Below, piece after piece: positions 8,822 through 51,629 of a stretch of 64,000 bases of DNA. The DNA comes from an uncultured Gemmatimonadales bacterium (GTDB lineage Bacteria; Gemmatimonadota; Gemmatimonadetes; Gemmatimonadales; GWC2-71-9): positions 192,001-256,000 of the forward strand of contig CAWHFW010000002.1 in the NCBI GenBank assembly GCA_963828735.1. The letters are read 5' to 3'. A program made the position numbers and the translations under genes. The notes below the pieces were generated by a model, which worked only from the letters and a program-made list of their open reading frames with translations, did no database searches and was not told the DNA's origin. The stretch's first letter is position 1, and each line of letters opens with the position of its first letter.

Positions 8822-8828
8822 CAGGGTC

Positions 8829-31148: not shown

Positions 31149-31223
31149 CGGGGCTGACGGGGCTCGAACCCGCGACCTCCGCAGTGACAGTGCGGCACTC
31201 TAACCAAGCTGAGCTACAGCCCC
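31149..31223 (-). tRNA. tRNA-Asp(GTC), CCA not encoded
   Basis: GGGGCTG acceptor stem, TAGCTCAG D arm, anticodon loop CTGTCAC, GGTTCGAGCCC T arm. Confidence 0.96.
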
Positions 31224-33216: not shown

Positions 33217-33291
33217 TGGGCGAAGAGGGATTCGAACCCCCGACATCCTGCGTGTAAGGCAGGCGCTCTGAACCGGCTGAGCTATTCGCCC
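33217..33291 (-). tRNA. tRNA-Val(TAC), CCA not encoded
   Basis: GGGCGAA acceptor stem, TAGCTCAG, anticodon loop CTTACAC, GGTTCGAATCC T arm. Confidence 0.96.
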
Positions 33292-33595: not shown

Positions 33596-34441
33596 CTACG
33601 GTTTTGGAGGCGGGTCAAGTTCAGGCCCTTCCTCAGCTTCGGGAGCGTCGGGCTCCACGACCCAGCCGACGTCCAGCGCGGCCCGGCGGACCCGATCGGC
33701 CCGGCGCCGGCGGTGGACGAGCCAGAGCACCACGAGGCCGACCACCGCCCATCCTCCACCGGCGATCAGCCACTGGCCCAGGGTATACCGATGTCGGAGG
33801 GCCCGGCGCCACGCTTCCTCGAAGCGCCCAAGCGTAAGGCCCGTCGTGGCCAGCACCGCGGTCTCGAAGTCCTCGCCCCGCTCGAGACGCCCGAGCAGGG
33901 GCGCGAGAGTGCCCGTGGGGTTGCGGTGCGCGAGCTCGGTGACGGCGGAGGCCGCGAGGGCATAGGCCGCGTCCGCGGTCGAGGCCGAGCCGCGCAGGGC
34001 CCCGTCGAGCTCGGTCAGGGAGGGGATCGCACCGCGAACGACGGCGAGGTTGAGCTCGAGGCCTCCAAACCGCTCCCACTCGCCTGCGGCCCAGGCGGCG
34101 TAGCCCTCGTCGAACCAGAGGGGCACGCGCACCGGGACTGCCTCGTGGAGCGCGAGGTGGGCCAGCTCGTGCCGCAGGGTGCGGAGGAGATCGTCCTGGT
34201 CGGCGCGGAGGAGGATGGTGCGAGCGCCCGGGAGCGCGATGGCCGCGCCCCACGTCGGGGCGCGGCCGGAGGTGAGCGAGTCGAGCGTCCTCCCGTCGGG
34301 GACGACGATGAGGCGAAGGGGCCCGGGATCCCGCACGCCCAAGCCGGGCCACTCGGCCGGCTGGTCCGCGGCTCGGGCGAGCGCCCGGGCAACCTCGCGC
34401 TGCGCGGGCCACGCCACGACCGTCACCCGCCCGACCTGCAT
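33596..34441 (-). CDS. Membrane-anchored zincin (peptidase MA-like); true start probably ~40-60 bp upstream
   Basis: LRHELAH...PLWFDEGYA gluzincin motif and C-terminal TM helix. An in-frame hydrophobic leader lies upstream of the ATG. Confidence 0.8.
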   Translation of the reverse strand: MQVGRVTVVAWPAQREVARALARAADQPAEWPGLGVRDPGPLRLIVVPDGRTLDSLTSGRAPTWGAAIALPGARTILLRADQDDLLRTLRHELAHLALHEAVPVRVPLWFDEGYAAWAAGEWERFGGLELNLAVVRGAIPSLTELDGALRGSASTADAAYALAASAVTELAHRNPTGTLAPLLGRLERGEDFETAVLATTGLTLGRFEEAWRRALRHRYTLGQWLIAGGGWAVVGLVVLWLVHRRRRADRVRRAALDVGWVVEPDAPEAEEGPELDPPPKP

Positions 34442-34476
34442 GGCGGCGGGCGTGCCCTGGAGCAGGAGCGCGAGCG

Positions 34477-35343
34477 CTAGGAGAGCAGGCTGCGCGGGAC
34501 CTCACCCCCAGCGGCCGCCACGTCGAGCATCTCCTTACAACGCTTGGCCCACGGGTTGAACTTGTTGGCCTTGTGCCCTTCTGCCCAGGTCTGCATGGCT
34601 TCGTCGCGCTGCCCGGCGAACCAGAGCGCGCGGCCGAGCTCGAAGTAGGCCTCGATCAGGTTCGGGCCCAGCTTCAGGGTCTTCCGGAAGAAGGTCTGCG
34701 CGTCCTCGTACATCTCGCGCTCCAGGTAGACGAGCCCCAGGTAGTAGTGCGCGTAGAGCGTCGCCTTGCGATCGTTGTCGAGGCGGATGGCCTTGGACAG
34801 GTGCTCGATCGCCTCGCCGAAGATCCGCTTCTTGAGGCAGATGTACCCGACGTTGATCCGCGCGAGCGCGTTCGCCGGCTCCTTCATCAGCACCCGCGAG
34901 AAGGTGCCGAGGGCATCGTCGTAGTCCTCGTGAAGCATCTGGGCCCAGCCCAGGAGCGATTGCGCCTGGATGTCGCCAGGCGCGAGCGCGAGCGCCTTCT
35001 CGAGGGACTGGATCGCGCCGGCGTAGTCACCGAGGGAGATGAGGCTCCACCCCTTCTCGATATACGTGGACGCACCGAGATGGTCCGCGTGGACCGCCGG
35101 GCGCGCACCGGTGAACTGGGGCGCCGTCGCGGCACCGGTGGCGTTCCCCTGCTTGTACCGCTCCACGAGCCCCCGGATGTCTTCCTTCATCTGTCCCAAG
35201 TCGCCGAGCGCGCCGTCCACCCGCTTGAAGAGCGCGATGATGTCCCGCTTGACGGTCTCACGCTCGGCCCCCTGCGCGGCGCCGAGTCGCAATTCGATCT
35301 CCTGGAACTGACCCCGCAGGGTCGCGATCCACTGCTCGCTCAT
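34477..35343 (-). CDS. Coiled-coil plus TPR protein
   Basis: N-terminal helical region followed by ~5 TPRs (YAHYYLGLVYLE, AYFELGRA). Confidence 0.85.
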   Translation of the reverse strand: MSEQWIATLRGQFQEIELRLGAAQGAERETVKRDIIALFKRVDGALGDLGQMKEDIRGLVERYKQGNATGAATAPQFTGARPAVHADHLGASTYIEKGWSLISLGDYAGAIQSLEKALALAPGDIQAQSLLGWAQMLHEDYDDALGTFSRVLMKEPANALARINVGYICLKKRIFGEAIEHLSKAIRLDNDRKATLYAHYYLGLVYLEREMYEDAQTFFRKTLKLGPNLIEAYFELGRALWFAGQRDEAMQTWAEGHKANKFNPWAKRCKEMLDVAAAGGEVPRSLLS

Positions 35344-35810
35344 GAGGGGCTTTCCATGGCGGTCAACGCCATCCGTTCGGTGGACGACAACAGCTTGCGC
35401 GCGTTCAGGATGATGATGGTCCGCTCGGGTCGCGTCACGATGCCCATGATGTACGCGGCGGCGAGCCCGCTCACCATCGGCCCGGGGGCGGTGATGGTCG
35501 TGCTGTCCACCCGCATGACCTCGCGCACCTCGTCGACCAGGACGCCCACGCGCTGCTCGCCCAGGTCTACGACCATGAGCCGGGTCTCTTCCCGGATCGG
35601 CGCCGCCAGCTCGAACCGCTTTCGCAGGTCCACCACGGGCACCGCGCCGCCTTCGTAGGGGACGACCCCTTCGAGGAAGTCCGGCGCCTTGGGCAACCGC
35701 GCCGGCGCGACGTGCCGCAGGATCCGCTCGACCTGCAGGATGTCGAACGCGAACTCCTGGGTGCCGACCCGGAAGGTCACGACCTGAATGTCGTCGCCCG
35801 TATCGCTCAT
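35340..35810 (-). CDS. cheW: Chemotaxis coupling protein CheW
   Basis: QVVTFRVG, FAFDILQVERI, LPKAPDFLEGV, VPVVDLRKRF, GVLVDEV. Confidence 0.9.
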   Translation of the reverse strand: MSDTGDDIQVVTFRVGTQEFAFDILQVERILRHVAPARLPKAPDFLEGVVPYEGGAVPVVDLRKRFELAAPIREETRLMVVDLGEQRVGVLVDEVREVMRVDSTTITAPGPMVSGLAAAYIMGIVTRPERTIIILNARKLLSSTERMALTAMESPS

Positions 35811-36235
35811 GCGGCCGAGGTCTCCATGAAGCGCGCACCAAGCGCGGCCAGGTCGAGCAGTGGAATCAAGCCGTATTCCGTGCGGGCCACCGCCGCGGCC
35901 CACGGAAGCGCGCTCCCTGACGGCACGGGGAGGCCCCGGTCGTACAGCACCGATTCGGCCGCATCGATCTCGAGGCAGAGCCGGCGTCCGCCCACCTCGA
36001 CCAGCACGCCCATCTCGGTTCGCTCGTTCGGGCAGGCCCGTCCCTCGAGGAGGGCGGCGAGATGCACGAGCGGCAGGATGCGGCCGCGAATGACCGACAC
36101 GCCGCGCACCGCCGGCTCGATCGACGGCACGGGAAACGCCGTCCCGGGATCGAGGACCTCGACGACCTGAGCGAGCGGCAGCCCCACCACTCGCTCGCCC
36201 GCGCGCACCAGCAGGTGGCCGACGCCGCCTCTCAT
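35807..36235 (-). CDS. cheW: CheW-like protein (divergent)
   Basis: [39 protein letters not shown]. Confidence 0.8.
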
Positions 36236-37308
36236 TGGCTTGCCATCCGGTCCAGCTCCTCCCCGACACGCGCCGCGATGCGACCGATCGGCAGAACGTG
36301 GTTTACGCCGCCGGCCTGCACGGCCGCGCTGGGCATGCCGTAGATCGTGGCCGTCTCCCGATCCTGCGCGATTCCGACGCCCCCGGCGTCTCGGATCTCG
36401 CGCAGGCCGTCCGCGCCATCCCGACCCAGCCCGGTGAGGACCACCCCCACCGCGCGGGGCCCGAAGATCCGGGCCACGCTCCGGAACAGCGGGTCGGCGG
36501 CGGGGCGCACGCCCCACACCGCGGGCTCCTGGTCGAGCTCGAGCCGCAAGCCCTCGGTCGAGATGGCGACGCGCATATGATAATCCCCGGGTGCCACGTA
36601 GGCGGTGTCCGCCAGGACCGGAGTCCCGTGCTGCGCCTCGACGACGTTGAGCCGGCTCTGCGAGGCGAGCCGCTCCGCGAGGCTGTGCGTGAACTTGGGC
36701 GGCATGTGCTGCACGATCAGGATCGCCGCGTCCTGTCCGGTCGCGAGCTGCGGTACCAGCTCGGCCAGGGCCCGGGGGCCGCCGGTCGAGGCGGCGATCG
36801 CGGCGCAGCGGCGGGCCCGGCCCGGCAGCGCGAACATCGCCTGCATGTGCGCGCTGCGCGCCGGTCGGGCGAGCACCGGCATCCGAAGGATCTCGGCGCT
36901 CCGCACCGCGCGCAGCGTGCCGATGAGGCGCTCGCGGAACCGGGCGATGGCCTGATCGCTCCGATCCTCCTCCTTCGGGACGAGGTCGACGGCCCCCAGC
37001 TCGAGCGCGCGGATCGCCGCGCCCGTGCCCCGCCCCGCGTACGAGCTCACCACCACGATCGGCCGGGGCGACTCCGACATGATGTAGCCGATCGCGCCGA
37101 GGCCATCGAGATCGGGCATCTCCAGGTCCATCAGGACCAGGTCCGGCTCGAGGTCGTGCACTTTCTGCAGGGCCTCGACGCCGTTCCGTGCCGTTGCCAG
37201 GGCGCGGAAGTCGCCGCTCTCGTCCACGCAGTCGGTCAGCAGCCGCCGGAAGAAGGCGCTGTCGTCCACGATCAGGACGCTCCGCGGCTCAGAGGCTCTG
37301 GATGCCAT
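36232..37308 (-). CDS. cheB: Chemotaxis methylesterase CheB (REC + esterase)
   Basis: [42 protein letters not shown]. Confidence 0.95.
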
Positions 37309-37774
37309 GCGACACCGACGAGACCTCGACCCGCCCGTCGGCCACCCAGAGCTTCACGGTGCGGCCGAAGTCGCCGCCGGTCGCCTCGCCCACGAGCGCT
37401 ACGCCGTGCTGGTAGAGCGTCTGCCGACAGGCGACCAGGTTGCGCTCGCCCATCTGGATCGTGCCCGGCGCGGCGAGCGCCGCGAACATGCTCGCGCCGC
37501 CCACCAGCCGGGCCGTGATTCGGCGGCCGCTCGCGCCCTTCTGGGCCATCAACTCGAGGAGGCGCGGGATCGCGGTCTGCGGGAACTTGGCCGGGTTGTC
37601 GTCCTTGCGGCTGAGCGCGGGCGACGGCAGCAGGACATGCGCGAGGCCGCCGACCTTCGCGACCGGATCGTGGAGCACGACGGCGACGCAGCTGCCGAGT
37701 CCGACCGTGACCAGCACGTCCGGCCCCGAGCCGGCCCTGAGGTCGGCGACGCGGACGATGATCGCGCCGTTCAC
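37289..37774 (-). CDS. cheD: Chemoreceptor glutamine deamidase CheD
   Basis: [34 protein letters not shown]. Confidence 0.92.
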
Positions 37775-38589
37775 GCGGGCCGCCGGTACACGCGCTCGCG
37801 GGGGTCCACGAGCGCCAGCCGGTCGCGGGCCGAGCCGAACAGGGTCTCCACCTTGCCGAGGACCAGGAATCCTCCGGGAAGGAGCGCATCGGCGAACGTC
37901 CGGAACAGCCGCTCCTGCATCGGGCGATCGAAATAGATCACGACATTCCGGCACAAAATGAGGTCGTAGTCGGTGCGAAGCGGCGCCTCGCGGCTCAGAT
38001 CGAGGGGCCGTATGTGGACGCGGCGGCGGACGCGATCGCCGACGCGGAGCGTCTCGCCGCTGTCCTCGAAGTAGCGGCTGACCAGGTCGGACGGCATTTC
38101 GGTCAGGCCCTCGCGGCGGTAGACGGCGTCGCGGGCCCGCTCGAGGCTGGCGCGATCGATATCGGTGGCATCGATCGTCAGCCGGGTGAGCTCGCCCCCG
38201 CGGCCCGCCTTGTCGAGGCAGTCCGCGGCGAGCGCGGCCAGGGTATAGGGCTCTTCCCCCGACGCGCAGCCCGCGCTCCACACGCGCACCTCTACGCGCG
38301 GCCGGTCGAACAGTGTCGGGAGCACCGCGCGCCGGAGCAGATTCCAGGTCTCCGCGTTCCGATAGAACCGGGTGACGTTGATCGTGAGCGCGTCCCGCAG
38401 GTGCTCGTACTCGACCGGCGATCGGCTGAGGAGCGCCCGGTAGTCGTCGTACGTGTGGACGCCGCAGGCCCGCATACGCACCGCGATCCGTCGGCGGATG
38501 CACTTGTCCTTGTACGCCCCGACGGTGAAACCGCTCGTCTGGGCGATCTGTCGCGCGAGCGCCGCGAACGCCGCGTCGTCGGCCGTCAT
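37771..38589 (-). CDS. cheR: Chemoreceptor methyltransferase CheR
   Basis: LTINVTRFYR, WSAGCASGEEPY, ATDID, DLILCRNVVIYF, LGKVE. Confidence 0.95.
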   Translation of the reverse strand: MTADDAAFAALARQIAQTSGFTVGAYKDKCIRRRIAVRMRACGVHTYDDYRALLSRSPVEYEHLRDALTINVTRFYRNAETWNLLRRAVLPTLFDRPRVEVRVWSAGCASGEEPYTLAALAADCLDKAGRGGELTRLTIDATDIDRASLERARDAVYRREGLTEMPSDLVSRYFEDSGETLRVGDRVRRRVHIRPLDLSREAPLRTDYDLILCRNVVIYFDRPMQERLFRTFADALLPGGFLVLGKVETLFGSARDRLALVDPRERVYRRPA

Positions 38590-40202
38590 GGCGCCATGTC
38601 CAGCATCTCGAGGTTCGCCCGCGCCAGCTCGTGCCCGGGATTGAGCTCGGTGGCGCGGCTCCAGCTCTCGCGGGCCAGCGGCTTGTCGCGGCGCTTGTAG
38701 GCGATGTTGCCGAGCTTGAAGTAGAGGTCGTCGCCCAAATCGGGCGCGAGCTTGGCAGCGCGCTCGTAGGCCTCGCGCGCCTCCTCGTAGCGGCCGTTGC
38801 GGTACAGGATGTCGGCCAGGTTCTTGGAGACCTGGGGCAGCGAGGCATCCTCCGCCAGCGCCGCGCGAAGCGCCTTCTCGGCGCCCTGCGCGTCACCCGT
38901 GAGCTCGAGCAGCACCGCGAGGTTGTTCTGCAGGACCGCGCTCGAGGGGTAGGTCTCGACACCGTCGCGCGCGGCCCGGACCGCGCCCGGGTTGTCGTCG
39001 AGCCCGGCGCTCGCGAGCGTGGAGGCCCAGTACCAAAGGGCGGGCGCCGGCTTTCCGCCGAGCAGCTCGAGGGTGCGCGCGAGCCGTCCCTGCGCGACCT
39101 GATGCTCCCCCCGCTTCAGGGCCACGACGCTCCAACCCAGCATGATCCGCGCGTCGTCGCGCGCGCGGCCGGCGGCATCGCCGAAGGCGGCCTCGGCCTC
39201 ATCGAGGCGGCCTAGGCGCTCGAGCGCGTACCCCAGGTTGTGGAGTGCGGCCGGCTTGGCGCCCGCCGCGCCGGCGGCCTGCCGGAAGGCGGTGGCCGCC
39301 TCCTCCCAACGCCCTTGTCGCACGGCGATGAGGCCGAGGTAGAACGGCGCGCTCGCGTCCGCGGGCCGCAGCTCGGCGACCCGGCGGAACTCCCGGAGCG
39401 CCTCGTCCAGCATCGCGGCTTTGTAGAAGGCGATGCCCAGGTTGCGATGCTCGTCCACGCGACCGTCGTTCACCTTCGGCGCGGCCGGGGCCGAGGTGCC
39501 CACCCGGTGCGCGAACCCCGCCGTGATGAGTCCGAAGAGCGCCTTCCCCACCTCGAATTCCACCAACCCGGACTCGTCGATCACCGCCTGGACGTCGCGC
39601 GTCCCGTCGAGCAGCCGGATCAGGCGTCGCTGCTCGGCCGACAGTTCCGGCGCCGACTCCCCGAGGTGAGCGGGGTCCACCGAGAAGATGAGGTCGAAGG
39701 ACGGGATCTTCTTCTCGATCAGGCTCCATTCGTCGACCCGCCGGGCGCCCTCGAGCAGCAGGAACTCGGGGTTGATGCGCACGAGGAAATCCTCGCGCTC
39801 CGGATTGACGCCGGCCTCGAAGTTGAACGTCCCCGACGTCCAGGTGAACAGGTAGTAGACAGCCTCCTCGATCTGGAGGCGGATGTGGCTCTCCAGGTCC
39901 TCCCGGCTCACGAAGCCGAGCTCGACCAGGATCTCGCCCAGCTTGTGCTCGCGGTCGCCCTCCTGGCGATCGATCGCCTGCTGGAGCTGCTCGGCGCTGA
40001 TGCGCCCGCCTCGCAGGAGGATGTCGCCGAGCCGATCGCGGCGGTTCACGATCGCCGCGTAGACGATGTGGCCTTCCTCGAAGTAGATCGTGCCGAAGTT
40101 GTGTCGGTCGGCGAGGGCCAGGCACCCGGTCCGCCGCCCGAGGAACAGCAGCTGGATCACGTCGGGAAGACTCGCTTCCTTGAGGCTGCCCTTGATCGCC
40201 AT
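38586..40202 (-). CDS. DUF4388 + MshEN-like + TPR protein
   Basis: KGSLKEASLPDVIQLL...TG...IYFEEG; RLGDILL...Q and KLGEILV...Q; WTSGTFNF; LLLEGARRVDEW; C-terminal TPRs. Confidence 0.85.
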   Translation of the reverse strand: MAIKGSLKEASLPDVIQLLFLGRRTGCLALADRHNFGTIYFEEGHIVYAAIVNRRDRLGDILLRGGRISAEQLQQAIDRQEGDREHKLGEILVELGFVSREDLESHIRLQIEEAVYYLFTWTSGTFNFEAGVNPEREDFLVRINPEFLLLEGARRVDEWSLIEKKIPSFDLIFSVDPAHLGESAPELSAEQRRLIRLLDGTRDVQAVIDESGLVEFEVGKALFGLITAGFAHRVGTSAPAAPKVNDGRVDEHRNLGIAFYKAAMLDEALREFRRVAELRPADASAPFYLGLIAVRQGRWEEAATAFRQAAGAAGAKPAALHNLGYALERLGRLDEAEAAFGDAAGRARDDARIMLGWSVVALKRGEHQVAQGRLARTLELLGGKPAPALWYWASTLASAGLDDNPGAVRAARDGVETYPSSAVLQNNLAVLLELTGDAQGAEKALRAALAEDASLPQVSKNLADILYRNGRYEEAREAYERAAKLAPDLGDDLYFKLGNIAYKRRDKPLARESWSRATELNPGHELARANLEMLDMAP

Positions 40203-42226
40203 CAGCGCCACTCCTCGACGACGCGATCGGCGACCGCGGGCCACTCCCACACCATCTTCTCGCGGCTGCGGGTGGCGCTGGTGCCCGGGGCGACGATGCC
40301 GCTCGAACGGCCGGACGGCTTACGTGGTGCCGGCGCGGTGGCCGCGGGCTCTTCCAGGACCTCGCGCGCGAGCGCCGCGGTGGCCGGCGCGCCGCGCGCT
40401 GCGGCGGCCTCGAGGACGCGCTGCAGGAGGGCCTGTGCGGCGCGGATCGAATCCGCGGGGCGATCGGCGAGATAGGCCGCGAGGTCCGGCTCGGGAGCGC
40501 CGAGCTTGGTCTCGAGGTCGCGCGCCAGTACGCATTGGCGCACCGATGCGTCGGGCTGGGGCAGCTCGACCACCAGCCCGCCTTCGAGGCGCGACCGGAG
40601 GCGGGGCTCGACCCCCGTCAACTCGGCTAACGGGGCCGCGCAGCTGAACACGAGCTGGCGGCCGCCGTCCATGAGCGCGTTGAACAGGACGAAGAGCTCG
40701 TCCTGGGTCCGATCCTTGGCGGCAATGAGGTGGACGTCGTCCAGCAGGAACGCGGCCGCCCGGCGATAGCGCGCCCGCCAGGCCGCCACCCCATCGCGGT
40801 TGATCGCCTCGATCAACTCACCGGTGAACTCGGGCGCGCTGAGGCAGGCGATCGGCTCCCCCTGCTCGGCGAGCGCGTTGCCGATCGCGTGCAGCAGGTG
40901 CGTCTTGCCGACGGCCGGACCGCCCACGAGCACCAGCGGGTTGTAGCGGTCACCCGGATTCGCCGCGACGGCGCGCGCGGCCTCGACCACCACCCGGTTG
41001 GCCGGTGTTTCGACGAAACCCTCCAGCCGCCAGAGCGGTGACGGCGCGGGCGGCGGCGGTCCTTCTTCCCGCGCCTGCCGCAGTGCTTCTTCGGCACCGG
41101 CCAGATTCGCCGGATCGCGGAAGGCGGCCGAGCCGGCGAGCTCGGGCGCGAGCGCCTCCGCCTCCGCCTGCAGCGCCTGCAGGCGCTCCACGTCTTCCTC
41201 GAACTCGCGCAACGCGCGCTCGGGGTCGTTCACCATTTCCTGCTCGAGCAACGCCTCGAGCTGCGCGGTGCGGAAGCCCTCGCCCTGCCAGCGGAGGATT
41301 GCGGCGCTGACCCGGGCTCGCCAGGCGTCCACTTGCTGCGCGACGGTGGCGGCAATCTCGGAGAGGAAATCGTCGAACTCGGACGGGGCGGAGGCGGCGG
41401 CTGTCGCCGGCTGCCGCTCGGCGGCGACGGCCACGAGCTCCGGACGCGCGGACCGCGCGGGCTGCTCGATCTTTTCCGTCTTGTCCCCCGCGTCCGCCGC
41501 CGCCGTCGCCTCTCCGCCCACCAGCATCTGCGCCTGCTGGGCCGTCAATGGCTTCTCGCTCACCGCCTGGAACGCGATGATCCGATTGAGCCCGCCGAGC
41601 AGCTCGCGGACGTTGTCGATGTCCAGCGCCGCGACGGCCTCGAGCACGCCCTCGCCGAACGTGGCGCGGCGCTCGTCCGCCTTCCGGCGGAGGATCGCGA
41701 CCCGCGTCTCGTAATCGGGCGCGGCGACGTCGATGATGAGCCCGCCCGCGAATCGGCGGATCAGCCGATCGTCGAGCGCCTCGATCTCGGCGGGCGGCCG
41801 GTCGCTCGTGAGCACGATCTGGCGGCTCGCCGTCTGGAGTGCGTCGGTGAGCCGAAGCAGCTCGGCCTGCATCTCCCGCCGGTGGGTCAGGAACTGCACA
41901 TCGTCCACCAGCAGCAGGTCCACATCGAGGAAACGCTTGCGGTAGGCTTCCCCATGCCCCGCCGCGATGGCCGCGTGAAAGGCTTCGACGAACTCGTCCA
42001 GCGTGAGATACTCGACGGCGAGACGCGGATTGATGGCGCGGGCCGCGTGGCCGATCGCCATCAGCAAATGCGTCTTTCCCAAGCCTGGCCGGGCGTACAC
42101 GAAGAGCGGGTTGTACACCGTGCCGGGCGACTCCGCGACGGCCTTCGCGGCGGTCACGGCAAGCCGGTTGGCCGCCCCGACCACGAGCGTGTCGAACCGA
42201 TAGAGCGGGTTGAGCGTGACGGTCAC
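40202..42226 (-). CDS. Tandem DnaA/Hda-type AAA+ ATPase lacking DnaA domains I and IV
   Basis: Two copies of the N-R..YNPL..GKTHLL..DDV..R-x-x-R..GGL initiator-clade module. No HTH after either copy. Confidence 0.85.
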   Translation of the reverse strand: MTVTLNPLYRFDTLVVGAANRLAVTAAKAVAESPGTVYNPLFVYARPGLGKTHLLMAIGHAARAINPRLAVEYLTLDEFVEAFHAAIAAGHGEAYRKRFLDVDLLLVDDVQFLTHRREMQAELLRLTDALQTASRQIVLTSDRPPAEIEALDDRLIRRFAGGLIIDVAAPDYETRVAILRRKADERRATFGEGVLEAVAALDIDNVRELLGGLNRIIAFQAVSEKPLTAQQAQMLVGGEATAAADAGDKTEKIEQPARSARPELVAVAAERQPATAAASAPSEFDDFLSEIAATVAQQVDAWRARVSAAILRWQGEGFRTAQLEALLEQEMVNDPERALREFEEDVERLQALQAEAEALAPELAGSAAFRDPANLAGAEEALRQAREEGPPPPAPSPLWRLEGFVETPANRVVVEAARAVAANPGDRYNPLVLVGGPAVGKTHLLHAIGNALAEQGEPIACLSAPEFTGELIEAINRDGVAAWRARYRRAAAFLLDDVHLIAAKDRTQDELFVLFNALMDGGRQLVFSCAAPLAELTGVEPRLRSRLEGGLVVELPQPDASVRQCVLARDLETKLGAPEPDLAAYLADRPADSIRAAQALLQRVLEAAAARGAPATAALAREVLEEPAATAPAPRKPSGRSSGIVAPGTSATRSREKMVWEWPAVADRVVEEWR

Positions 42227-42825
42227 GCGACCGGGCTCCCGACCGCGAGGCGCTTGAGCACGAGCTCCGAAATGCCTCGCAGCGTCTCGAAGACGCCGCT
42301 CCCGTGCAGGGCGTCGGCCCCATAGCTCGGCACCGCGCGGAAGTTGAGCGCGTCGTCCATCTCCTCCTGGGAGAGGATCAGGTCGCCGGGGAGGTCCTGC
42401 TTGTTGTACTGGAACACGACCGGGAGCTGGCGGACGTCGACCCCCTGCGCGAGCAGGTTGTCCTGCAGGTTCTGCAGGCTCTCGAGGTTGTCGTCGAAGC
42501 GGCGCGCCTGGCTGTCACCCACGAACACCACGCCGTCCGCCCCCTGGAGCACGAGCTTCCGGGTCGCGTTGTAGTAGCTCTGACCGGGCACGGTGTACAG
42601 CTGGAACTTGGTCGTGAAGCCGGAGATAGTTCCGAGCTCGAGCGGCAGGAAATCGAAGAACAGCGTGCGATCGGTCTGCGTCGCGAGCGAGACCATCCGT
42701 CCACGACGGCTCTCGGGCACGCGACCGTAGACGTACTGCAGATTGGTCGTCTTCCCGGACCGCCCGGGCCCGTAGTAGACGATCTTGCAGGTGATCTCGC
42801 GTGCCGTAAAGTTGACGAGGGACAT
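42223..42825 (-). CDS. mglA: MglA-family small Ras-like GTPase
   Basis: KIVYYGPGRSGKTTNL, DRTLFFDFLP, LYTVPGQ, GADGVVFV, YNKQDL match the Myxococcus MglA signature. Confidence 0.93.
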   Translation of the reverse strand: MSLVNFTAREITCKIVYYGPGRSGKTTNLQYVYGRVPESRRGRMVSLATQTDRTLFFDFLPLELGTISGFTTKFQLYTVPGQSYYNATRKLVLQGADGVVFVGDSQARRFDDNLESLQNLQDNLLAQGVDVRQLPVVFQYNKQDLPGDLILSQEEMDDALNFRAVPSYGADALHGSGVFETLRGISELVLKRLAVGSPVA

Positions 42826-42830
42826 GCCGG

Positions 42831-43292
42831 TTACCGTCCGAAAAGCGCTTTGAGACTCGCGTTGAGCTCGGTCTCGAAATTTTCCGCCAGCATCGGCGCC
42901 GGCGGTTGTTCCCGCGGCGACGCGGCGGCGAGCTGCCGCACCATCTGATCGAAGAACAGCCGCACGATTCCCACCGAGGTCTCGGGGCCGAAGACCACCA
43001 GGCCGATCCACCGTCCGCGCGGCGTCGTGAACGCGGCGAGCATGCAGCTCTGCCGCTGGCCGTGGTGCACCACGGCCTCGAACCGGGTCGCGCCCATGAG
43101 CCGCGCCAGCTCCTCGGTCGAGGCCACGATGCCCGCGCCCAGGGCGGCCGCGGTCATCACGTCGAGCGACCGCGAGAACCCGTGCTGCGCCACCACCTGG
43201 CCGGAGGATGTCATGAGCAGGGTGAGCCGGGCGGCGCTCTCGGCGAGAAACGTCTCGAGCGGCTCGACCACCCACGGCTCCAGCGCCTTCAT
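42831..43292 (-). CDS. mglB: Roadblock/LC7 protein, MglB-like GAP
   Basis: Directly upstream of mglA. LMTSSGQVVAQHG, AAALGAG..ASTEELARLMG, SVGIVRL. Confidence 0.72.
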   Translation of the reverse strand: MKALEPWVVEPLETFLAESAARLTLLMTSSGQVVAQHGFSRSLDVMTAAALGAGIVASTEELARLMGATRFEAVVHHGQRQSCMLAAFTTPRGRWIGLVVFGPETSVGIVRLFFDQMVRQLAAASPREQPPAPMLAENFETELNASLKALFGR

Positions 43293-43639
43293 CAGCCGAG
43301 CCGGCCGGCGGCGTCGAGCATTTCCAGCCGAGCCAGTCCCAGGTTCGCGTCCGGCCCGACCACGGCGACGAGGACCAGGTCCTCGGGGCCCAGCGCCGCC
43401 AGCACGCTGCCGCCCTCGCCGCGCAGCTGCACGAAGGCCGGCGGGCGGAGTCCGGCGCTCTCCGCGGTGCGCACGAGACGCCCCACAAGGCTCCCGGTGA
43501 GCGCGGCGGCGGCCTGGCCGTCCACCCCCTCCATGAGCTGTTCGGCAACGACCAGCCCGTCACTGGCAGCCACGACGAGCGCGCCGCGCACGCCGCGCAC
43601 GCGGGTGATCCGGTCGAGCGCCGTCTGGGTCGCGGTCAT
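43292..43639 (-). CDS. Roadblock/LC7 protein
   Basis: RGVRGALVVAASDGLVV, AAAL, ANLGLARLEM. Confidence 0.85.
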   Translation of the reverse strand: MTATQTALDRITRVRGVRGALVVAASDGLVVAEQLMEGVDGQAAAALTGSLVGRLVRTAESAGLRPPAFVQLRGEGGSVLAALGPEDLVLVAVVGPDANLGLARLEMLDAAGRLG

Positions 43640-44487
43640 GCCTGCGCCTCGAGCCACGCTCGCGCGGCCCGCGCCGCCCGCTCGGCGAGGAGCGTGACCC
43701 TGCCCATCGGGAGCGCGGCCTCGCGTGCGGCCAGCACGACCGTGTCCGCGCTGGCGTGGGTGAGCACGACGTGGCCGTCCGGGGATTCGACGGCGATCGT
43801 GTGCCAGCTCCCGAGGCCCAGCAGGCGGGTCGCGCGCGCGGCCTCGCGGGACAGACCCGCGAGCTGTGCCGCCACCCGGTCTCCCGCGGGATCGCCGGGG
43901 TCCTCGGCCAGGCGACCACCGAGGCGAAGCCCGTTGGCGTCGACCAGCAGGAGGCCCTCCTCCCCATCGTCCAGGTCCTCGAACGGGCCCGCGACCGTGT
44001 CGTCCACCGGGGCGACGGGCGCGAGGGGCTGTTCCACGACCGGAGCCGGTGTCGCGGCTGGCGCCGGGGCCGTGCGCGCCGCGTCCCGGAGCGCGGGTCC
44101 GAGGCGGGCGATCGCCTGGCGGATCGAGGGGTCGTCCGGGTCCACGTCCAGCGCGCGCTGCAGGTGTTCGAGCGCGGCCGTCGTCTCGCCGGCGCGGAAA
44201 TAGAGGAAGGCGATTCCCTTGAGTGCGCTGGTCCGCATCGGGTCGAGCTGCAGCGCCGATGCCCAGGCGTCGAATGCGCCCGCGAGGTCGCCCTGATCGC
44301 TCAGGATCCGCGCCATCAGGTCGTGAGCGTCGGCCAGCCCCGGGTAACGGGTCAGCCCTCCACGTGCCACCTTGTGCGCCGCGTCGAGCTGGCCGCGGCC
44401 GCGCAGCGCTTCGGCGAGCTCCAGGAACGCGAGGCTCCCCGGCTCTTCCGCGATGCGAGCGGTCAGACGGCGGATGTCGTCAGTCAC
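43636..44487 (-). CDS. TPR-roadblock fusion protein
   Basis: N-terminal TPRs (PGSLAFLELAEALR), Pro/Ala linker, C-terminal roadblock (LLVDANGL...PMGRV). Confidence 0.8.
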   Translation of the reverse strand: MTDDIRRLTARIAEEPGSLAFLELAEALRGRGQLDAAHKVARGGLTRYPGLADAHDLMARILSDQGDLAGAFDAWASALQLDPMRTSALKGIAFLYFRAGETTAALEHLQRALDVDPDDPSIRQAIARLGPALRDAARTAPAPAATPAPVVEQPLAPVAPVDDTVAGPFEDLDDGEEGLLLVDANGLRLGGRLAEDPGDPAGDRVAAQLAGLSREAARATRLLGLGSWHTIAVESPDGHVVLTHASADTVVLAAREAALPMGRVTLLAERAARAARAWLEAQA

Positions 44488-45529
44488 GGAACCGCTCCAG
44501 CTCCCTCATGATCGTCTCCGCCGACTGACACAGCCGTGCGACGCTCGGGCTTTCCGCCTCTTCGCCCGGTGTGCGGTCGCCCAGCCGATTCCAGGACGCC
44601 CACAGCTCGAGCGCCTCGCCGAAGCGCCCGATGGCGGCGTAGCACAACCCCAGCAGGCGGCGCGCCTCGGGCATGAGGGGGTCGCTCCGCAGCACTTCCT
44701 CGAGGGCGCCGGCCGCGAGGTCGTACTGGCCTCCGGCCAGCGCCTCCCGCGCGGGCACCAGGAGCGCGGCCAGATCGCGTCCCGGCTCCGCTTCCTGGCC
44801 GGGGTGCGCGGGATCATCGAGTACCACGATGCCTGCGTTGGTGAGCCCGTATACCGTTCGCGCCACTTCGAACTCCGAGCGGCCCAGCATCTCGGCCAGC
44901 GAGTGCAGATCGCGGGCCCCGTCGACCGCCGCGAGCACTTCCCACTCGAAGGGAACGAGATCGAGCGTCTCGCTGCCCTGGGACTCGGGCGCGGGCAGTC
45001 GCGGGACCAGGCGGAGGTGCGAGACCTTGGATCCGATGCGCGACCACTCGTCGATGCGACGCGCCGCTTCCATCAGCAGCGCCTCGGTCGGGAATCGGAC
45101 CGGCGCCTCGACCGCCGCGTGACACGAGGCGCCCTCCTCGAAGCGGAAGTAGCCCTCCGACCAGCGCAGCAGCTCGAACACCGCTTCCTCGATCTGGGCC
45201 TTGAGCTGGCGGTCGAGCTCGCGACGGGAGATGACACCCAGGCTCACGAGGATGTCGCCGAGGCGGCGGTCGTCGCCGCTCGTCTGCATGCTGCGCGCGC
45301 GATCGAGGTCGGCGCCGGTGAGCTTTCCGGAGCGGACCAGGCGGGCGCCCAGCGGTTGGGGGTCGCTGCCGACGGCCGCGGCGACGACACCGCCTCGGTC
45401 GAAGCACACGGTGCCCGCCGTCTGGCGCAGCTCCGAGGTGACGCGCAGGACCCCGCTCTTCCGGCCGAGGTCGAGGAGCTGGAAGACGTCCTGAATGTGC
45501 AGGTCCTTGAGGGGCCCTTCGAGCGCCAT
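44480..45529 (-). CDS. DUF4388 + MshEN-like protein with C-terminal TPR
   Basis: MALEGPLKDLHIQDVFQLL...KSG, RLGDILVSLG, WSEGYFRF, LLMEAARRIDEW. Paralogue of 38586-40202. Confidence 0.85.
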   Translation of the reverse strand: MALEGPLKDLHIQDVFQLLDLGRKSGVLRVTSELRQTAGTVCFDRGGVVAAAVGSDPQPLGARLVRSGKLTGADLDRARSMQTSGDDRRLGDILVSLGVISRRELDRQLKAQIEEAVFELLRWSEGYFRFEEGASCHAAVEAPVRFPTEALLMEAARRIDEWSRIGSKVSHLRLVPRLPAPESQGSETLDLVPFEWEVLAAVDGARDLHSLAEMLGRSEFEVARTVYGLTNAGIVVLDDPAHPGQEAEPGRDLAALLVPAREALAGGQYDLAAGALEEVLRSDPLMPEARRLLGLCYAAIGRFGEALELWASWNRLGDRTPGEEAESPSVARLCQSAETIMRELERFRD

Positions 45530-45532
45530 CGC

Positions 45533-48220
45533 TCAGCCCACCGACGCGGCGAAGATGTGCTGGAGGTCGCGCGCGGAGCGCGCGCGCGTGCGCGCCTGCG
45601 CGGCGTAGGGGCCGGCGGGATCGAGCTGGACGACGCGCTCCCAGGCCTGAACGGCCTGATCGAACTGTCGCTGCCGCGCGAGCGCGCCGCCCTCGTAGTA
45701 GAGCGCCCCGGCGTGCTCGGGATCGAACCGGAGCACCCGCTCGAAGGCCTCCAGTGCCTGCACCGTGCGACCATCCTCCAGCAGTGCGCGGCCCAGCGCC
45801 GTGAGCGCCTCCAGCTCGTACGGGTCGGCCTCCAGTAGGCGGACCAGCACTCCGATGGCGGCGCGCGGCGTCTCGGTGCGGCGGAGGAGGTCCGCCAGGG
45901 CGATCGCCGCGGCGCTGTAGGTCGGCAGGAGATCGAGCGCCCGCTCGTATGCCGCCCGGGCCGCCGCCCAGTTCCCGCGCTCTTCCTCGATCCCGCCGAG
46001 CTCGAACCACACCCGCACGAGCGACGGATCGAGCTGGAGGGCCGCATTGAAGGCGGCGAGCGCAGCCGAGCGATCGCCCAGGCGGGCGGAGACCTGCGCC
46101 TGGAGGTGAAAGAGATCCGGCCGCCCGGGCTCGAGCGCCTGCGCCTCGCGGATGCAGTCCAGCGCGCCCAGCGCATCGCTCACCGCCAGACGGACGCGGG
46201 CCCGCGCAACCAGCACCTCCACGTCGCCGCGTACGCGGCGGGCCAGCTCGTCCGCCAGGGGCGCCGCGTCGCCGGCCCAGCCGAGGGCCAGGAGCGCGCG
46301 GATCTCACCGAGTGTGGCGTCGGGATCGTCGGGAGTCGCGGTCCGCGCGGCGCGGTAACGCTCGAGCGCCTCGCCGTACAGGCCGCGCTTGGCGAAGATG
46401 TCGCCGAGGAGGACCGCGGTCGCGCCCTGCGGCGCGCCGCGCGCCGCGGCCCGGCTCAGCTCGGCGGACGCGAGGTCGAGGAGTCCCTTGGCGATGTAGT
46501 CGCGCGCGAGGTCGAGCGCGTCTCCCACCGCGCCGTTACCATTGGCCGCGGCCACCGTCGGGGTGAGCTCGGCGAACAGCTGATCAAGCGCCGGCGGGTC
46601 GAACGCGAACTCCCCAGCGAGCTGGTCGCCGCCCACCTCCGCCGTCAGCTCGGGAGCGATCGCGATCGTGGGGTCTTCGTACTGCAGGTCGATGGTGAGC
46701 GAGAACTTCTGCGGCACGTACAGCGGCTCAAGCTCGAGCGCGCGGCGGGTCTCGCGCAGCGCGCCGTCGAAGTCGCCGAGCTGGCTCAGGACGAAGCTCA
46801 GGTTGTAGTGGGCGCCTGCCATCCCGGGGTCGGCGTCCACCGCGCGGCCGAACGCATTCCGTGCGTCCTCGAACCGGCGAAGCTCCATGAGCACGAGCCC
46901 GACGCCGTTCCAGGCGACGGCGCTCGCGCTCTGTTCCGAGAGGGCGCCCTGGTACTCGTCGAGGGCCTGGCGGAGCTGCCGGCGCTGGAGGAACAGGAGC
47001 CCGAGATTGAGCCGCGCGGCCAGCAGCGGCCGCTCGCCATCGAGCGCGCGGCGGAACGCGGCGATCGCGGCGTCGGCCGGCTCGCCCGCGCGCACGACGC
47101 CCAGGTTGTTCCAGGCGAGCTGGTAGCCGGGATCCACGGCCACGGCCCGCTCGTAGGAGGCGATGGCCTCGGCGCGCCGGCCGGCCTGGTGGAGGCAGAC
47201 CCCGCGCTCGTTCCACAGCTTGGGCGAGTCGGCATGCTCGCGGACGAGCGCCTCGTACAGCTCGAGCGCCGCGGGCAGCTCGCGCCGGAGCAGGCGCACC
47301 TCCGCCATCGCCTGCAGGGTCAGGCGGCGGTCTTCTCCCGCCTCGAGGGCTTGCCCGTACTCGCGCAGCGCCTCCTCGTGCAGGCCCTTCTGGCGAAAGG
47401 CGAGTCCGAGGTTGTAGTGGGCCAGCGCGCCGCCTTCGACGATTTGCGGACGCGCTGTCTGCCGGGCCGTCTGTCCCGCCGCCGCGCCCGACGGCCCATA
47501 GCGCTCCAGCGCGAGATTGGCCTGGGCCCGCGCCAGCGTCGGGTTCAGCTTGATGGCGTGCTTGGTCGCCTCGCGGGCCTCCTCGTGGCGGCCGATGTCG
47601 CCGTAGACGAAGGCAAGGAGATAGTGCGCCTCGGCGTAGTCGGGGTTCCGCGCGATGGCCTCGCGCAGGGCCTCGAGCGCCGGCTCGTTCAGGCCGCGGT
47701 TGTAGAGCACCTCGCCGTAGTAGAAGCGGGCCACCGCGCTGGCGGGGTCCTGCGAGCAGGCGCGCGCGAGCCAGTCCGTGGCGGTGTCGAGGTTGCCGCG
47801 GGCCTTCTCGGCCAGGCCGAGCTGCAGCATGGCGGGGACGTCCGAGGGCTGCCAGGCGAGCAGCGCCTGGAACTCCGCGATGGCGTCTGCGTGGCGGCCG
47901 AGGGCGGCGTACGCGCGCCCGAGTTCCCAACGGGCGTCGCGATCCTCGGGGTGCCGGCGGACGCGCTCCCGGAGCTCGGTGATGCGGCGGTCGTAATGGC
48001 CGCTCTCACGGTAGGCGATGTCGAGATTGCTTTGCGCGACCTGCATGCGCGGGTCGAGCTCGAGCGCGCGCACGAACTCGGCGATCGCGTCCTCGATCAG
48101 CCCCTTCTGATAGTAGAGGACGCCCAGGTTGTTGTGGGCGCCCGCGTCGGAGGGATCGATCCGGCGGGCAAAGGAGCGCAGGACGGCGAGATCGCGCTCC
48201 GACAGCACGGGCCCGGGCAT
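45533..48220 (-). CDS. Large multi-TPR scaffold protein
   Basis: Many repeats of the AHNNLG/AHYNLG/AWNNLG type; no signal peptide. Confidence 0.9.
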   Translation of the reverse strand: MPGPVLSERDLAVLRSFARRIDPSDAGAHNNLGVLYYQKGLIEDAIAEFVRALELDPRMQVAQSNLDIAYRESGHYDRRITELRERVRRHPEDRDARWELGRAYAALGRHADAIAEFQALLAWQPSDVPAMLQLGLAEKARGNLDTATDWLARACSQDPASAVARFYYGEVLYNRGLNEPALEALREAIARNPDYAEAHYLLAFVYGDIGRHEEAREATKHAIKLNPTLARAQANLALERYGPSGAAAGQTARQTARPQIVEGGALAHYNLGLAFRQKGLHEEALREYGQALEAGEDRRLTLQAMAEVRLLRRELPAALELYEALVREHADSPKLWNERGVCLHQAGRRAEAIASYERAVAVDPGYQLAWNNLGVVRAGEPADAAIAAFRRALDGERPLLAARLNLGLLFLQRRQLRQALDEYQGALSEQSASAVAWNGVGLVLMELRRFEDARNAFGRAVDADPGMAGAHYNLSFVLSQLGDFDGALRETRRALELEPLYVPQKFSLTIDLQYEDPTIAIAPELTAEVGGDQLAGEFAFDPPALDQLFAELTPTVAAANGNGAVGDALDLARDYIAKGLLDLASAELSRAAARGAPQGATAVLLGDIFAKRGLYGEALERYRAARTATPDDPDATLGEIRALLALGWAGDAAPLADELARRVRGDVEVLVARARVRLAVSDALGALDCIREAQALEPGRPDLFHLQAQVSARLGDRSAALAAFNAALQLDPSLVRVWFELGGIEEERGNWAAARAAYERALDLLPTYSAAAIALADLLRRTETPRAAIGVLVRLLEADPYELEALTALGRALLEDGRTVQALEAFERVLRFDPEHAGALYYEGGALARQRQFDQAVQAWERVVQLDPAGPYAAQARTRARSARDLQHIFAASVG

Positions 48221-48224
48221 CGGA

Positions 48225-48845
48225 TCAGGTCAGGCGGATGGCGTCGAAGATGGCCCGAAGCGACGGCGTGTCGGGCAGGAGCAGGAAATGGCCGCGCCAG
48301 GGCTCGGTCGTGTCCTCCACCCGGAACGAGGTCTCGACGCAGAAGACGAAGTCGCGATCGTGCCCGAAGTTGAGGTACGTCGTCGTGAGCACGGCCGCGC
48401 TCAGGTCGACGACCAGACTGGGCACCGAGGGGACCAGCATCATGCCCATGAAGTCGCTGAGCGCGTTCATGTACGCGCTCGCGAGGATGTTGCCGGCCTC
48501 CTTGAGGCCCGACTGCTCCATGGGGCCGAACTCGCCGGTCGTCCCGGCACTCCGCCTGAACAGTATATCACAGAGCGCTCGGGCCGACCCTTCGGGGAAC
48601 ATCACCAGCGTGCGACCGGTCAGGTCGCCCATCATGTGCATGAGCACGGCCGCGACCACCTCGTCGGGCGAGCCGACCAGGTCGGTGACCTCCTCGAGCG
48701 GCCGCACGTTGACCTCCGGCACGGCGATCATGATCGTGCGGTTGGTCATCTGCGACAACGCGGTCGCGGCGTGTCCGGCGCCGATGTTGGCGACCTCGCG
48801 CAGCGCGTCCAGCTGCAGCTCCTTCAGGCCCCGCACGTCTTCCAT
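48225..48845 (-). CDS. cheC: CheY-P phosphatase CheC
   Basis: DALREVANIGAGHAATALS and SGLKEAGNIL (two E-x-x-N active sites), PSVP. Confidence 0.92.
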   Translation of the reverse strand: MEDVRGLKELQLDALREVANIGAGHAATALSQMTNRTIMIAVPEVNVRPLEEVTDLVGSPDEVVAAVLMHMMGDLTGRTLVMFPEGSARALCDILFRRSAGTTGEFGPMEQSGLKEAGNILASAYMNALSDFMGMMLVPSVPSLVVDLSAAVLTTTYLNFGHDRDFVFCVETSFRVEDTTEPWRGHFLLLPDTPSLRAIFDAIRLT

Positions 48846-48855
48846 GAGTGTCTCC

Positions 48856-50733: not shown

Positions 50734-50736
50734 GCG

Positions 50737-51099
50737 TCAGCCGAGAACGCGCTGGACCGCCTCGAGCACACGCGAGGGCTGAAATGGCTTCACCACGAAG
50801 TCCTTCGCGCCCGCCTGAATCGCCTCCACGACCAGCGCCTGCTGCCCCATCGCGCTGCACATCAGGATCTTGGCCTCGGGATCGGTCTTGCAGATCTCGC
50901 GGACCGCCTCGATGCCGCCCATGTCAGGCATCACGATGTCCATGGTGACGAGGTCCGGCTTGAGCGAGCGGTACTTCTCGACCGCCTGCGAGCCCGATTC
51001 GGCCTCGCCCACGACTTCGAACCCGGCTTGCGTCAGGATGTCGCTGATCATCGTGCGCATGAAGATGGCGTCATCGCAGACGAGCACTGTGTGGCTCAC
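50737..51099 (-). CDS. cheY: Response regulator CheY
   Basis: DDAIFMR, DLVTMDIVMP, CSAMGQ, GAKDFVVKPF (Firmicutes/Thermotoga-type CheY). Confidence 0.93.
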   Translation of the reverse strand: MSHTVLVCDDAIFMRTMISDILTQAGFEVVGEAESGSQAVEKYRSLKPDLVTMDIVMPDMGGIEAVREICKTDPEAKILMCSAMGQQALVVEAIQAGAKDFVVKPFQPSRVLEAVQRVLG

Positions 51100-51123
51100 G
51101 GACGGCCTCCGGATCGAGTCGAA

Positions 51124-51190
51124 TCGTGGGTCTGGGGTCGTGAGTCGTGGCGCTGGTGTGAGTCTCCCGACTCACGACCCGAGCCCACGA
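51124..51190. repeat. Intergenic inverted repeat built from 7-mer units (REP-like hairpin)
   Basis: GGGTCGTGAGTCG (51135-51147) pairs with CGACTCACGACCC (51168-51180). Outer arms TCGTGGG / CCCACGA. Confidence 0.75.
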
Positions 51191-51197
51191 CCGCCTG

Positions 51198-51629
51198 TCA
51201 AATGATCGGCGCGACCAGCGCGTCGATGTCGAGCAGGATGAAGTGCTGGCCGTCCCGGATGCCGACCGCCTTCACCAGCCGGGGATCGATGCCCGGAAGG
51301 TCGGCACGTTCGGCCACCATGTGCGCCGGGACCTCGAGGAAGTCGACCACCTGGCCGACCCCCAACCCGTACCGCCGGCCGCCCACCTCCACGACCACGA
51401 TGGCACCCTCGTCCTCGCTCCGGCGCGACTGCTGGAGGAGAATGTGACCATCGAACACGGTGAGCAGGGTGCCCCGGACGTTGACCAAGCCTTCGATCGC
51501 CTCGGCGACCCCCGGGATCCGGGTGGCCTCCAGGCGCGGCAGGATCTCCCGCACGATCCCTGCCGGGGCCGCGCAAATAAGCGCACCGATGCGAAAAATG
51601 ACGGCGTGGAGCGTCGGGGAGTTAGCCAT
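51198..51629 (-). CDS. cheW: CheW protein
   Basis: VIFRIG, VREIL, TRIPGV..AIEGLVNVRG, ILLDIDAL. Confidence 0.88.
   Translation of the reverse strand: MANSPTLHAVIFRIGALICAAPAGIVREILPRLEATRIPGVAEAIEGLVNVRGTLLTVFDGHILLQQSRRSEDEGAIVVVEVGGRRYGLGVGQVVDFLEVPAHMVAERADLPGIDPRLVKAVGIRDGQHFILLDIDALVAPII

Follow-up and report, generated by a model that had tools for sequence, protein, structure and literature searches.

What does a doubled copy of the DnaA ATPase core do in a cluster of chemosensory and polarity genes? The known roles of the AAA+ core of DnaA are in starting replication and in regulating that start. The question arises from a stretch of 64,000 nt from an uncultured Gemmatimonadales bacterium (NCBI GenBank assembly GCA_963828735.1, contig CAWHFW010000002.1, positions 192,001 to 256,000 of the forward strand), which as a whole is called the window here. 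One gene in it, directly downstream of mglA, encodes a protein with two DnaA-type AAA+ modules, a helical middle domain and a short tryptophan-rich tail (Table 1). Our analysis indicates that this tandem-DnaA protein is probably an ATP-gated adaptor in a polarity or type IV pilus pathway, whose tail would bind the tetratricopeptide repeat (TPR) half of the protein encoded next to it. The tandem-DnaA family is real, conserved and undescribed in the searchable literature; no description of such a protein was found in the literature outside the subscription journals. The DnaA core has apparently been re-wired into a surface-motility and polarity signalling cluster, in an abundant soil phylum and in a second phylum.

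A first, sequence-only reading of the gene described two DnaA-type AAA+ domains without a DNA-binding domain, and a hidden Markov model (HMM) scan agreed. PF00308 (Bac_DnaA) matched two stretches of the protein (E = 7e-92), and DnaA_N and Bac_DnaA_C (PF08299) were both absent among the five Pfam families found in it. Translation begins at domain III, right after the mglA stop codon, and there is no domain I. The Walker A lysines K51 and K441, expected at ~42075 and ~40905, map to nt 42076 and 40906. Between the two modules, identity is 37% over 182 aa. In a PDB search, module 1 aligned without gaps to residues 111-338 of Bacillus subtilis DnaA (E = 2e-55), and the best Foldseek match was domain III of this DnaA (8bv3, TM-score 0.93). 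The AlphaFold2 model (mean predicted local distance difference test score, pLDDT, 89; predicted template modelling score, pTM, 0.54) has two DnaA folds, a spacer, a helical domain and a partly ordered tail, and at this pTM the arrangement of the modules relative to each other is not confident. In the model both modules carry the initiator-specific motif (ISM), two helices between Walker A and Walker B (residues 76-88 and 92-100, and 464-476 and 480-488). The acidic helical linker that had been described between the modules is helical only in part; residues 246-282 are disordered, and the helical portion is a conserved domain (residues 283-388). For this middle domain, only generic helical bundles were found among 48,161 PDB representatives (best Z 6.4, none of 8 or more), no Pfam family reached the cut-off, and the ESM Atlas gave no usable match. 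Within Gemmatimonadota, no part of the family varies less than the tail.

The fusion is genuine. It spans 100% of the query in 119 of the 120 best homologues (77-85% identity), several of which carry the database name 'DnaA/Hda family protein [Gemmatimonadales bacterium]'. Most of the gene is also tiled by almost identical contigs that come from two further sequencing studies and that cover the junctions of module 2, linker and module 1 with 0-4 differences. An assembly artefact was rejected on the basis of the full-length homologues and these junction-tiling contigs from two independent DNA studies. RNA runs gave short, low-depth contig pieces of the gene only, which show neither transcription nor operon structure. 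A promoter and terminator scan gave 0 and 1 sites, respectively, not above the level of shuffled sequence, and a plasmid search gave no match.

The adaptor reading rests on the observation that the tail and the downstream TPR half outlast every reduction of the gene. Among 42 Gemmatimonadota loci carrying the tandem gene (L035-L074, L080 and L081), which were hand-chosen for spread, a PATAN-TPR gene lies directly 3' in all 42. A second, low-GC phylum centred on G152 contains the family in 49 of 101 genomes, and there the PATAN-TPR gene comes next in 28 of 28 complete loci. The stop codon of the tandem gene and the start codon of the partner overlap by 1 nt in 39 of the 48 distinct genes parsed (10 loci could not be parsed). 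In the Gemmatimonadota sample of 151 genomes, the middle-domain profile matched 100, with two modules or one; two of these 100 genomes (G055 and G095) are unpublished. All 100 hold an orthologue of the partner (E<1e-58). No form of the gene was found in 38 of the 151 genomes with the queries used, and their best match to the partner profile was at most 97 bits, which is the level of generic TPR proteins. Throughout the loci read, the partner that does not change is the TPR-bearing gene downstream, which the sequence-only reading had left out of account.

The gene has been reduced in several ways. A single module with the full helical domain is present in G047, G104 and G082. In G076 the middle domain is absent except for its helix motif, and both modules and the tail are kept. 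Six genomes from three genera (G034, G045, G050, G070, G072 and G112) have both ATPase modules deleted and the gene slot kept; the slot holds a mini open reading frame (ORF) of 60-73 aa that consists of the helix motif and the Trp tail only. Against profiles built from full-length rows only, the mini forms scored 19-27 bits for the helix and 14-31 bits for the tail, values that were not reached by any of 500 shuffles per sequence. Six deep-branching genomes (f11 and f12) have a single module and the Trp tail, followed by a TPR-only gene that resembles the TPR half of the partner. The f12 TPR-only partners scored 149-154 bits and were the top match, so their orthology is clear. The c-di-GMP (cyclic diguanylate) insert is also lost in five of the six partners of the ATPase-less mini forms. 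The ATPases, the helical domain, PATAN, the c-di-GMP motif, mglA and cheR/D/B are each missing somewhere, and every reduction spares the tail and the downstream TPR half, usually together with the helix motif. This series of two, one and no modules offers ready constructs for asking what difference an ATP switch makes to an adaptor, and a 60-aa mini-protein with its 438-aa partner would make a small, soluble and directly testable pair. In G070 the mini ORF spans L111:1154-1333 and the partner gene L111:1336-2649. In the ESM Atlas the mini-protein matched only unnamed clusters, at 0.89-0.90. A gap was seen in G112 (L096, ~9985-10092, + strand), where 105 nt with a 15-nt unit present about six times separate the mini ORF from the partner. 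Two homologues have apparent frameshifts; the gene is split in G125 (L043), and the tail is out of frame in G043 (L038).

The two AAA+ modules keep different sets of residues. Residues were counted in 39 Gemmatimonadota rows per module and compared with 50 canonical DnaAs, with L043, L058, L079 (a canonical dnaA) and L082 (a duplicate) omitted. The Walker A lysine is kept in both modules (39/39 in module 1, 38/39 in module 2), and Walker B is kept in the module 1 rows. Sensor I of module 2 reads SCA in the window, as first noted, and across the family its aspartate is kept in 34/39 module 1 rows versus 13/39 module 2 rows (lost in 26/39). The sensor II arginine is kept in 36/39 versus 28/39, and the finger arginine in 33/39 of module 1 and 36/39 of module 2; the target of a finger cannot be read from sequence. 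The equivalent of Escherichia coli R227 is arginine in 34/39 module 2 rows and is not among the commonest residues of module 1. Module 2 also keeps the equivalents of E. coli R281 (37/39), R285 (36/39), L290 (35/39), R245 (30/39), K243 (21/39) and V211 (as I/V, 30/39); for these and for R227, roles in DnaA-DnaA contact and single-stranded DNA (ssDNA) binding are given in PMC5742627. Of the B. subtilis positions whose roles are described in PMC10721633, module 2 keeps I190, R202 (36/39), K222 and E228 (38/39), and does not keep N187. In module 1 the ssDNA-capture positions are altered: N187 is E in 30/39 rows and I190 is H in 24/39 (E81 and H84 in the window), and position 183 is D/E in 34/39. 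Judged by these residues, module 1 appears to be the ATP face and module 2 the arginine-finger face. The simplest reading would be one composite site, with the finger face of module 2 on the ATP of module 1. The covalent pseudo-dimer that had been suggested earlier fits this pattern, with Walker A/B and sensors on module 1 and the finger face on module 2.

A quick tree of 119 of the 206 module rows, with support from the Shimodaira-Hasegawa-like approximate likelihood ratio test (SH-aLRT) only and no bootstrap, placed the module 1 and single-module Gemmatimonadota rows in one clade (SH-aLRT 96) and the module 2 rows in another (97). Both clades fall outside the canonical DnaAs, and on this point the comparison proposed by the sequence-only reading gave a result; the Hda and second-phylum rows lie on long branches, and the tree gives no conclusion on the position of Hda or on the root. 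Single-module forms are nested within the module 1 clade several times. Therefore, module 2 seems to have been lost repeatedly.

The protein shares fold and sequence with DnaA domain III (B. subtilis 8bv3/8btg, Thermotoga maritima 2z4r, Aquifex aeolicus 1l8q/2hcb), including Walker A/B, the finger and sensor II. Unlike DnaA, it has two modules per chain as well as a Trp tail and a new helical domain, and it lacks domains I and IV; its module 1 has changed ssDNA-capture residues, it lies outside the canonical clade, and its gene is not at dnaN. The DnaA set for ssDNA and the DnaA-trio (N187, I190, R202, K222 and E228 in B. subtilis) is not kept as a whole, and the tandem gene does not have the location of a dnaA (beside dnaN/rpmH, with DnaA boxes, as sole initiator). 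Like Hda/HdaA of the regulatory inactivation of DnaA (RIDA), it is a DnaA-type AAA+ protein without domain IV and carries an arginine finger, on module 2. Unlike Hda, it falls below the cut-offs of TIGR03420 (162.6 < 194.8) and NF051883 (68 < 300), it keeps the Walker A lysine where Hda has arginine, and it is far closer to DnaA than to Hda in the PDB search (E = 1e-56 versus 1e-4). The N-terminal clamp-binding motif of Hda, which had not been seen before either, was found in 0/45 rows, and the E. coli Hda control matched. In kind, the tandem protein would be an initiator-clade AAA+ switch that differs from DnaA in domains I and IV and location, and from Hda in the clamp motif and cut-offs. 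The TIGR00362 cut-off is passed (446.7 > 343.9) only by summing two stretches, which accounts for database names such as 'DnaA'. The tandem family, labelled 'DnaA' or 'DnaA/Hda family' in databases, contaminates DnaA counts.

We propose that the protein is a scaffold of the chemosensory/Mgl polarity pathway that was derived from DnaA domain III. What it could not do without would be a pair of short motifs, the EFxxFLxD helix and the Trp tail. The most likely docking site of the tail is the TPR half of the downstream gene's product. The residue conservation suggests that the two AAA+ modules are a fixed copy of the DnaA-DnaA interface, in which module 2 would give its arginine-finger face to the ATP of module 1, within one chain or head-to-tail. 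The nucleotide state might then alter the presentation of these motifs to the PATAN/TPR partner. Cyanobacterial PATAN proteins suggest by analogy that this partner may act on the motor of the type IV pilus or on positioning at the pole, and the output is likely to be control of type IV pili or polarity. In Synechocystis, PATAN domains bind PilB1/PilC (10.1101/2021.06.11.447907). The MglA-TPR control of pili in Myxococcus is a second analogy for the output. The architecture, the gene order, the reduction series and the residue asymmetry are direct observations, and binding, ATP gating and a pilus or polarity output are what they suggest.

Several observations weigh against this adaptor reading. 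The loci were hand-picked, and related genomes are not independent. Most genomes retain the ATPases, which hence matter there. The f11 TPR-only partners scored 84-104 bits, and in G003 and G018 they were not the top match; because these scores overlap the generic TPR level, their orthology rests on gene order. One copy in G151 (L130) is not followed by a PATAN or TPR gene, and the other copy has its PATAN gene upstream. The second middle-domain copy in G048 has no PATAN/TPR neighbour. Only 6 of the 28 complete proteins from the second phylum have the tail Trp, and most keep no more of the tail than R-x-x-x-E/D. Deep proteins scored about zero against the tail and helix profiles (3.1 and -0.9 bits in G003, -1.0 and 5.2 in G151, -4.8 and -2.8 in G152). 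The EE codons of the tail double as the ribosome-binding site (RBS) of the partner, and part of the tail conservation may be at the RNA level. In addition, the conserved DnaA-type ssDNA and oligomer residues of module 2 fit other explanations equally well.

The first of these explanations is a link to replication. The finger face of module 2 might join or cap the ATP-DnaA oligomer, with inactivation like that by Hda or by the hydrolysis of DnaA-ATP that depends on datA (DDAH), or the tail-TPR contact might tether the origin to the pole and couple polarity to initiation. We consider such a link unlikely. The DnaA-DnaA and ssDNA residues of module 2 are in its favour, and the module 2 of deep relatives retains nearly all DnaA motifs, but the same residues are also explained by pairing with module 1. 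Module 2 is also the part most often lost, and six genomes have lost both modules. Compared with DnaA from the same lineages, the two modules are diverging far faster (mean identities 0.47 and 0.43 versus 0.83, from genome sets that overlap without being identical). There is no clamp motif and no linkage of the tandem gene to dnaA or dnaN, and no DnaA box was found in the 22 kb around the gene (30-52 kb of the window) compared with two near the canonical dnaA. That dnaA, which the sequence-only reading had anticipated, encodes 460 aa on contig C5 and holds the only PF08299 match of the genome; the two modules and this dnaA are exactly the three PF00308 matches. The ORF after it is presumably dnaN, and the ORF before it we take to be rnpA. 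The earlier proposal that the protein caps or inactivates the DnaA filament thus found no positive support. In a more specific form, the DnaA-facing surface of module 2 would join the ATP-DnaA oligomer or the unwound origin while the tail anchors it through PATAN-TPR to an MglA-defined pole. We regard this form as unlikely as well. If true, a frozen DnaA dimer would have supplied a direct physical link from a chemosensory and polarity switch to the initiation of replication or the positioning of the origin.

The protein could instead be a direct effector or regulator of MglA that binds MglA-GTP and relays this to the PATAN-TPR protein. The coupling to mglA that the sequence-only reading described is real. 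The two genes overlap by 4 nt in the window, mglA is directly upstream in 41 of the 42 chosen Gemmatimonadota loci, and 27 of 30 second-phylum loci have it inside the 1.5-kb flank. However, the tandem gene is kept without an adjacent mglA in G114, G050, G070 and G072 and in the six f11/f12 genomes, where none is present within 1.5-kb flanks. In G070 and G072 the entire mgl block is gone, and the order is cheC, mini, partner, cheR. It is also kept beside a strongly diverged MglA in genus g10 (L041, L071 and L107-L109). There the cluster MglA is at 35-45% identity, with the P-loop and switch motifs altered in L041, and cheR/D/B are lost, and the tandem ATPase and partner remain at ~50%. These cases weaken the earlier suggestion of an MglA effector, which is now unlikely.

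A third explanation is that the gene is a cis-acting remnant, in which translation through the tail couples downstream expression and the ATPase modules are unrelated and dispensable. The common 1-nt overlap and the EE codons fit this, since these codons read GAGGAG, and the tail Glu is encoded by GAG in 36 of the 37 rows that have it. Against it, the helix motif is separated by 100 nt to 1.1 kb from the junction downstream of it and is nevertheless present in all six mini forms, and G112 keeps the tail despite its 105-nt gap. The W, P, R and K of the tail and the E, F, F and V of the helix are conserved as amino acids, with synonymous variation where possible (six Arg codons). The RBS role would not explain this conservation of the tail residues and of the distant helix motif, and a cis-acting remnant is highly improbable.

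Finally, the interface of the two modules might be a dinucleotide sensor that keeps the bipartite pocket of DnaA, with an ssDNA end or a cyclic dinucleotide as ligand, next to partners with c-di-GMP motifs. In B. subtilis one protomer gives R202/E228 to the pocket and its neighbour gives E183/N187 (PMC10721633), and the finger orientation in that paper suggests that the R202/E228 protomer would be the finger donor. Although R202 and E228 of module 2 and an acidic residue at 183 of module 1 are frequent in the counts above, N187 is mostly E in module 1, the ISM helix is deleted in second-phylum single-module proteins, and the model gives no confident inter-module arrangement, so that this sensor is very unlikely.

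The tandem gene lies in a single same-strand cluster with the order rluA, cheW, cheY, cheA, cheC, large TPR, PATAN-TPR, TPR-roadblock, roadblock, mglB, mglA, tandem-DnaA gene, PATAN-TPR, cheR, cheD, cheB, cheW, cheW, TPR and peptidase-like gene. The core of this order, from che through mglB and mglA to the tandem gene, PATAN/TPR and cheR/D/B, is conserved in Gemmatimonadota. The MshE-related c-di-GMP insert (NF053729) scored 49.5 bits, above the cut-off, in the partner and 37.3 bits, just below it, in the second PATAN protein. In favour of the adaptor reading, the source genome (97.5% complete) has PilM and four methyl-accepting chemotaxis proteins (MCPs) elsewhere, and no match to FliG_C was found in it. 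Between the cluster and mraW/ftsL/ftsI, tRNA-Asp (31149-31223) and tRNA-Val (33217-33291) bracket a 600-aa TPR gene. In many loci the cluster likewise keeps its place beside mraW.

Table 1. Features of the tandem-DnaA gene and its cluster (positions in the window)
Feature	Position	Strand	Remarks
Tandem DnaA-domain-III protein	40202..42226	-	674 aa, GTG start
AAA+ module 1 (residues ~5-238)	41513..42214	-	Walker A K51, Walker B D108/D109, sensor I D142, finger R158, sensor II R207
Ala/Pro-rich disordered spacer (residues 246-282), length variable	41381..41491	-	pLDDT <50; alignment
Helix motif EFxxFLxD/E (residues ~283-300)	41327..41380	-	Present also in mini forms without ATPase
Middle domain, all-helical, family-specific (residues 283-388)	41063..41380	-	Predicted; pLDDT mostly >85
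AAA+ module 2 (residues ~396-626)	40349..41041	-	Walker A K441, Walker B, box VII/finger and ISM face intact; sensor I lost
C-terminal tail EKxVWxWP-x4-R-x2-EE	40205..40273	-	Putative TPR ligand
GAGGAG, RBS-like for next gene	40211..40216	-	Same letters as tail EE codons
Partner: PATAN/DUF4388, MshE-related c-di-GMP motif insert, TPR half (residues ~250-538)	38586..40202	-	538 aa; ATG overlaps tandem gene stop by 1 nt
mglA small GTPase	42223..42828	-	
mglB-like roadblock protein	42831..43292	-	
Second roadblock/LC7 protein	43292..43657	-	Pfam
TPR and roadblock fusion	43636..44487	-	Pfam
Second PATAN/DUF4388-TPR protein with c-di-GMP-type motif	44480..45529	-	
Large TPR protein	45533..48220	-	895 aa; Pfam
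cheW, cheY, cheA, cheC	48225..51743	-	Pfam
cheR, cheD, cheB, cheW, cheW	35340..38589	-	Pfam
TPR protein and Peptidase_MA_2-like protein, cluster end	33596..35349	-	

PATAN genes beside group 1 mglA were noted by Wuichet and Sogaard-Andersen 2014 (PMC4316618), and in the supplementary table GAU_1409 of Gemmatimonas aurantiaca is entered as 'PATAN>MglA>-PATAN>'. This locus is very probably the cluster studied here, and the unlabelled dash would be the tandem-DnaA gene. 'DnaA' is absent from the main text and the supplementary files searched, with file 1 outside the search. In Myxococcus (MglA with SgmX/FrzS) and with the PatA-type regulators of cyanobacteria, Che, MglA/MglB, TPR and PATAN proteins likewise meet at polar pilus control. 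Unlike in those systems, all parts of the pathway are in one cluster here, and no DnaA-type ATPase was described for the Myxococcus or cyanobacterial pilus pathways in the abstracts and passages covered.

A single-sequence scan of the genome collection returned two loci only, and the middle-domain alignment is too variable for a pattern scan; the range given here covers the two sampled phyla. Second-phylum proteins have more eroded ATPase motifs, and some of these relatives have the initiator two-helix motif deleted. In G048 a second copy of the helical domain with a degenerate tail (L098, contig C50, ~8600-10360, + strand) is fused to a Cys-containing N-terminal region outside the mgl cluster. 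We take this region to resemble an iron-hydrogenase-like sensor domain, with no Pfam match. The helical domain may be a portable docking unit.

DnaA modules have also been reused in other proteins. P0199 and P0215 (1876-1990 aa) combine an MshEN domain with two DnaA modules that have a long helical repeat region between them, and these modules group apart from the tandem family in the tree. Their sequences point to a separate, signalling-type reuse of DnaA domain III. P0261 and P0271, the latter from a Candidatus Sumerlaeota bacterium, have long TPR arrays joined directly to a C-terminal DnaA module without domain IV. This combination in one chain echoes the proposed partnership of tail and TPR. 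P0206 (673 aa), from a single short contig, has two DnaA modules and domain IV, both modules group with E. coli DnaA, and it appears to be an independent internal duplication. In P0223 (738 aa), a member of the tandem family, a receiver domain replaces the C-terminal tail. A second mglA paralogue with one in-frame TGA is present in several f4, f5, f7 and f8 genomes (G027, G047, G104 and G114), and the TGA is possibly a selenocysteine codon or a shared stop.

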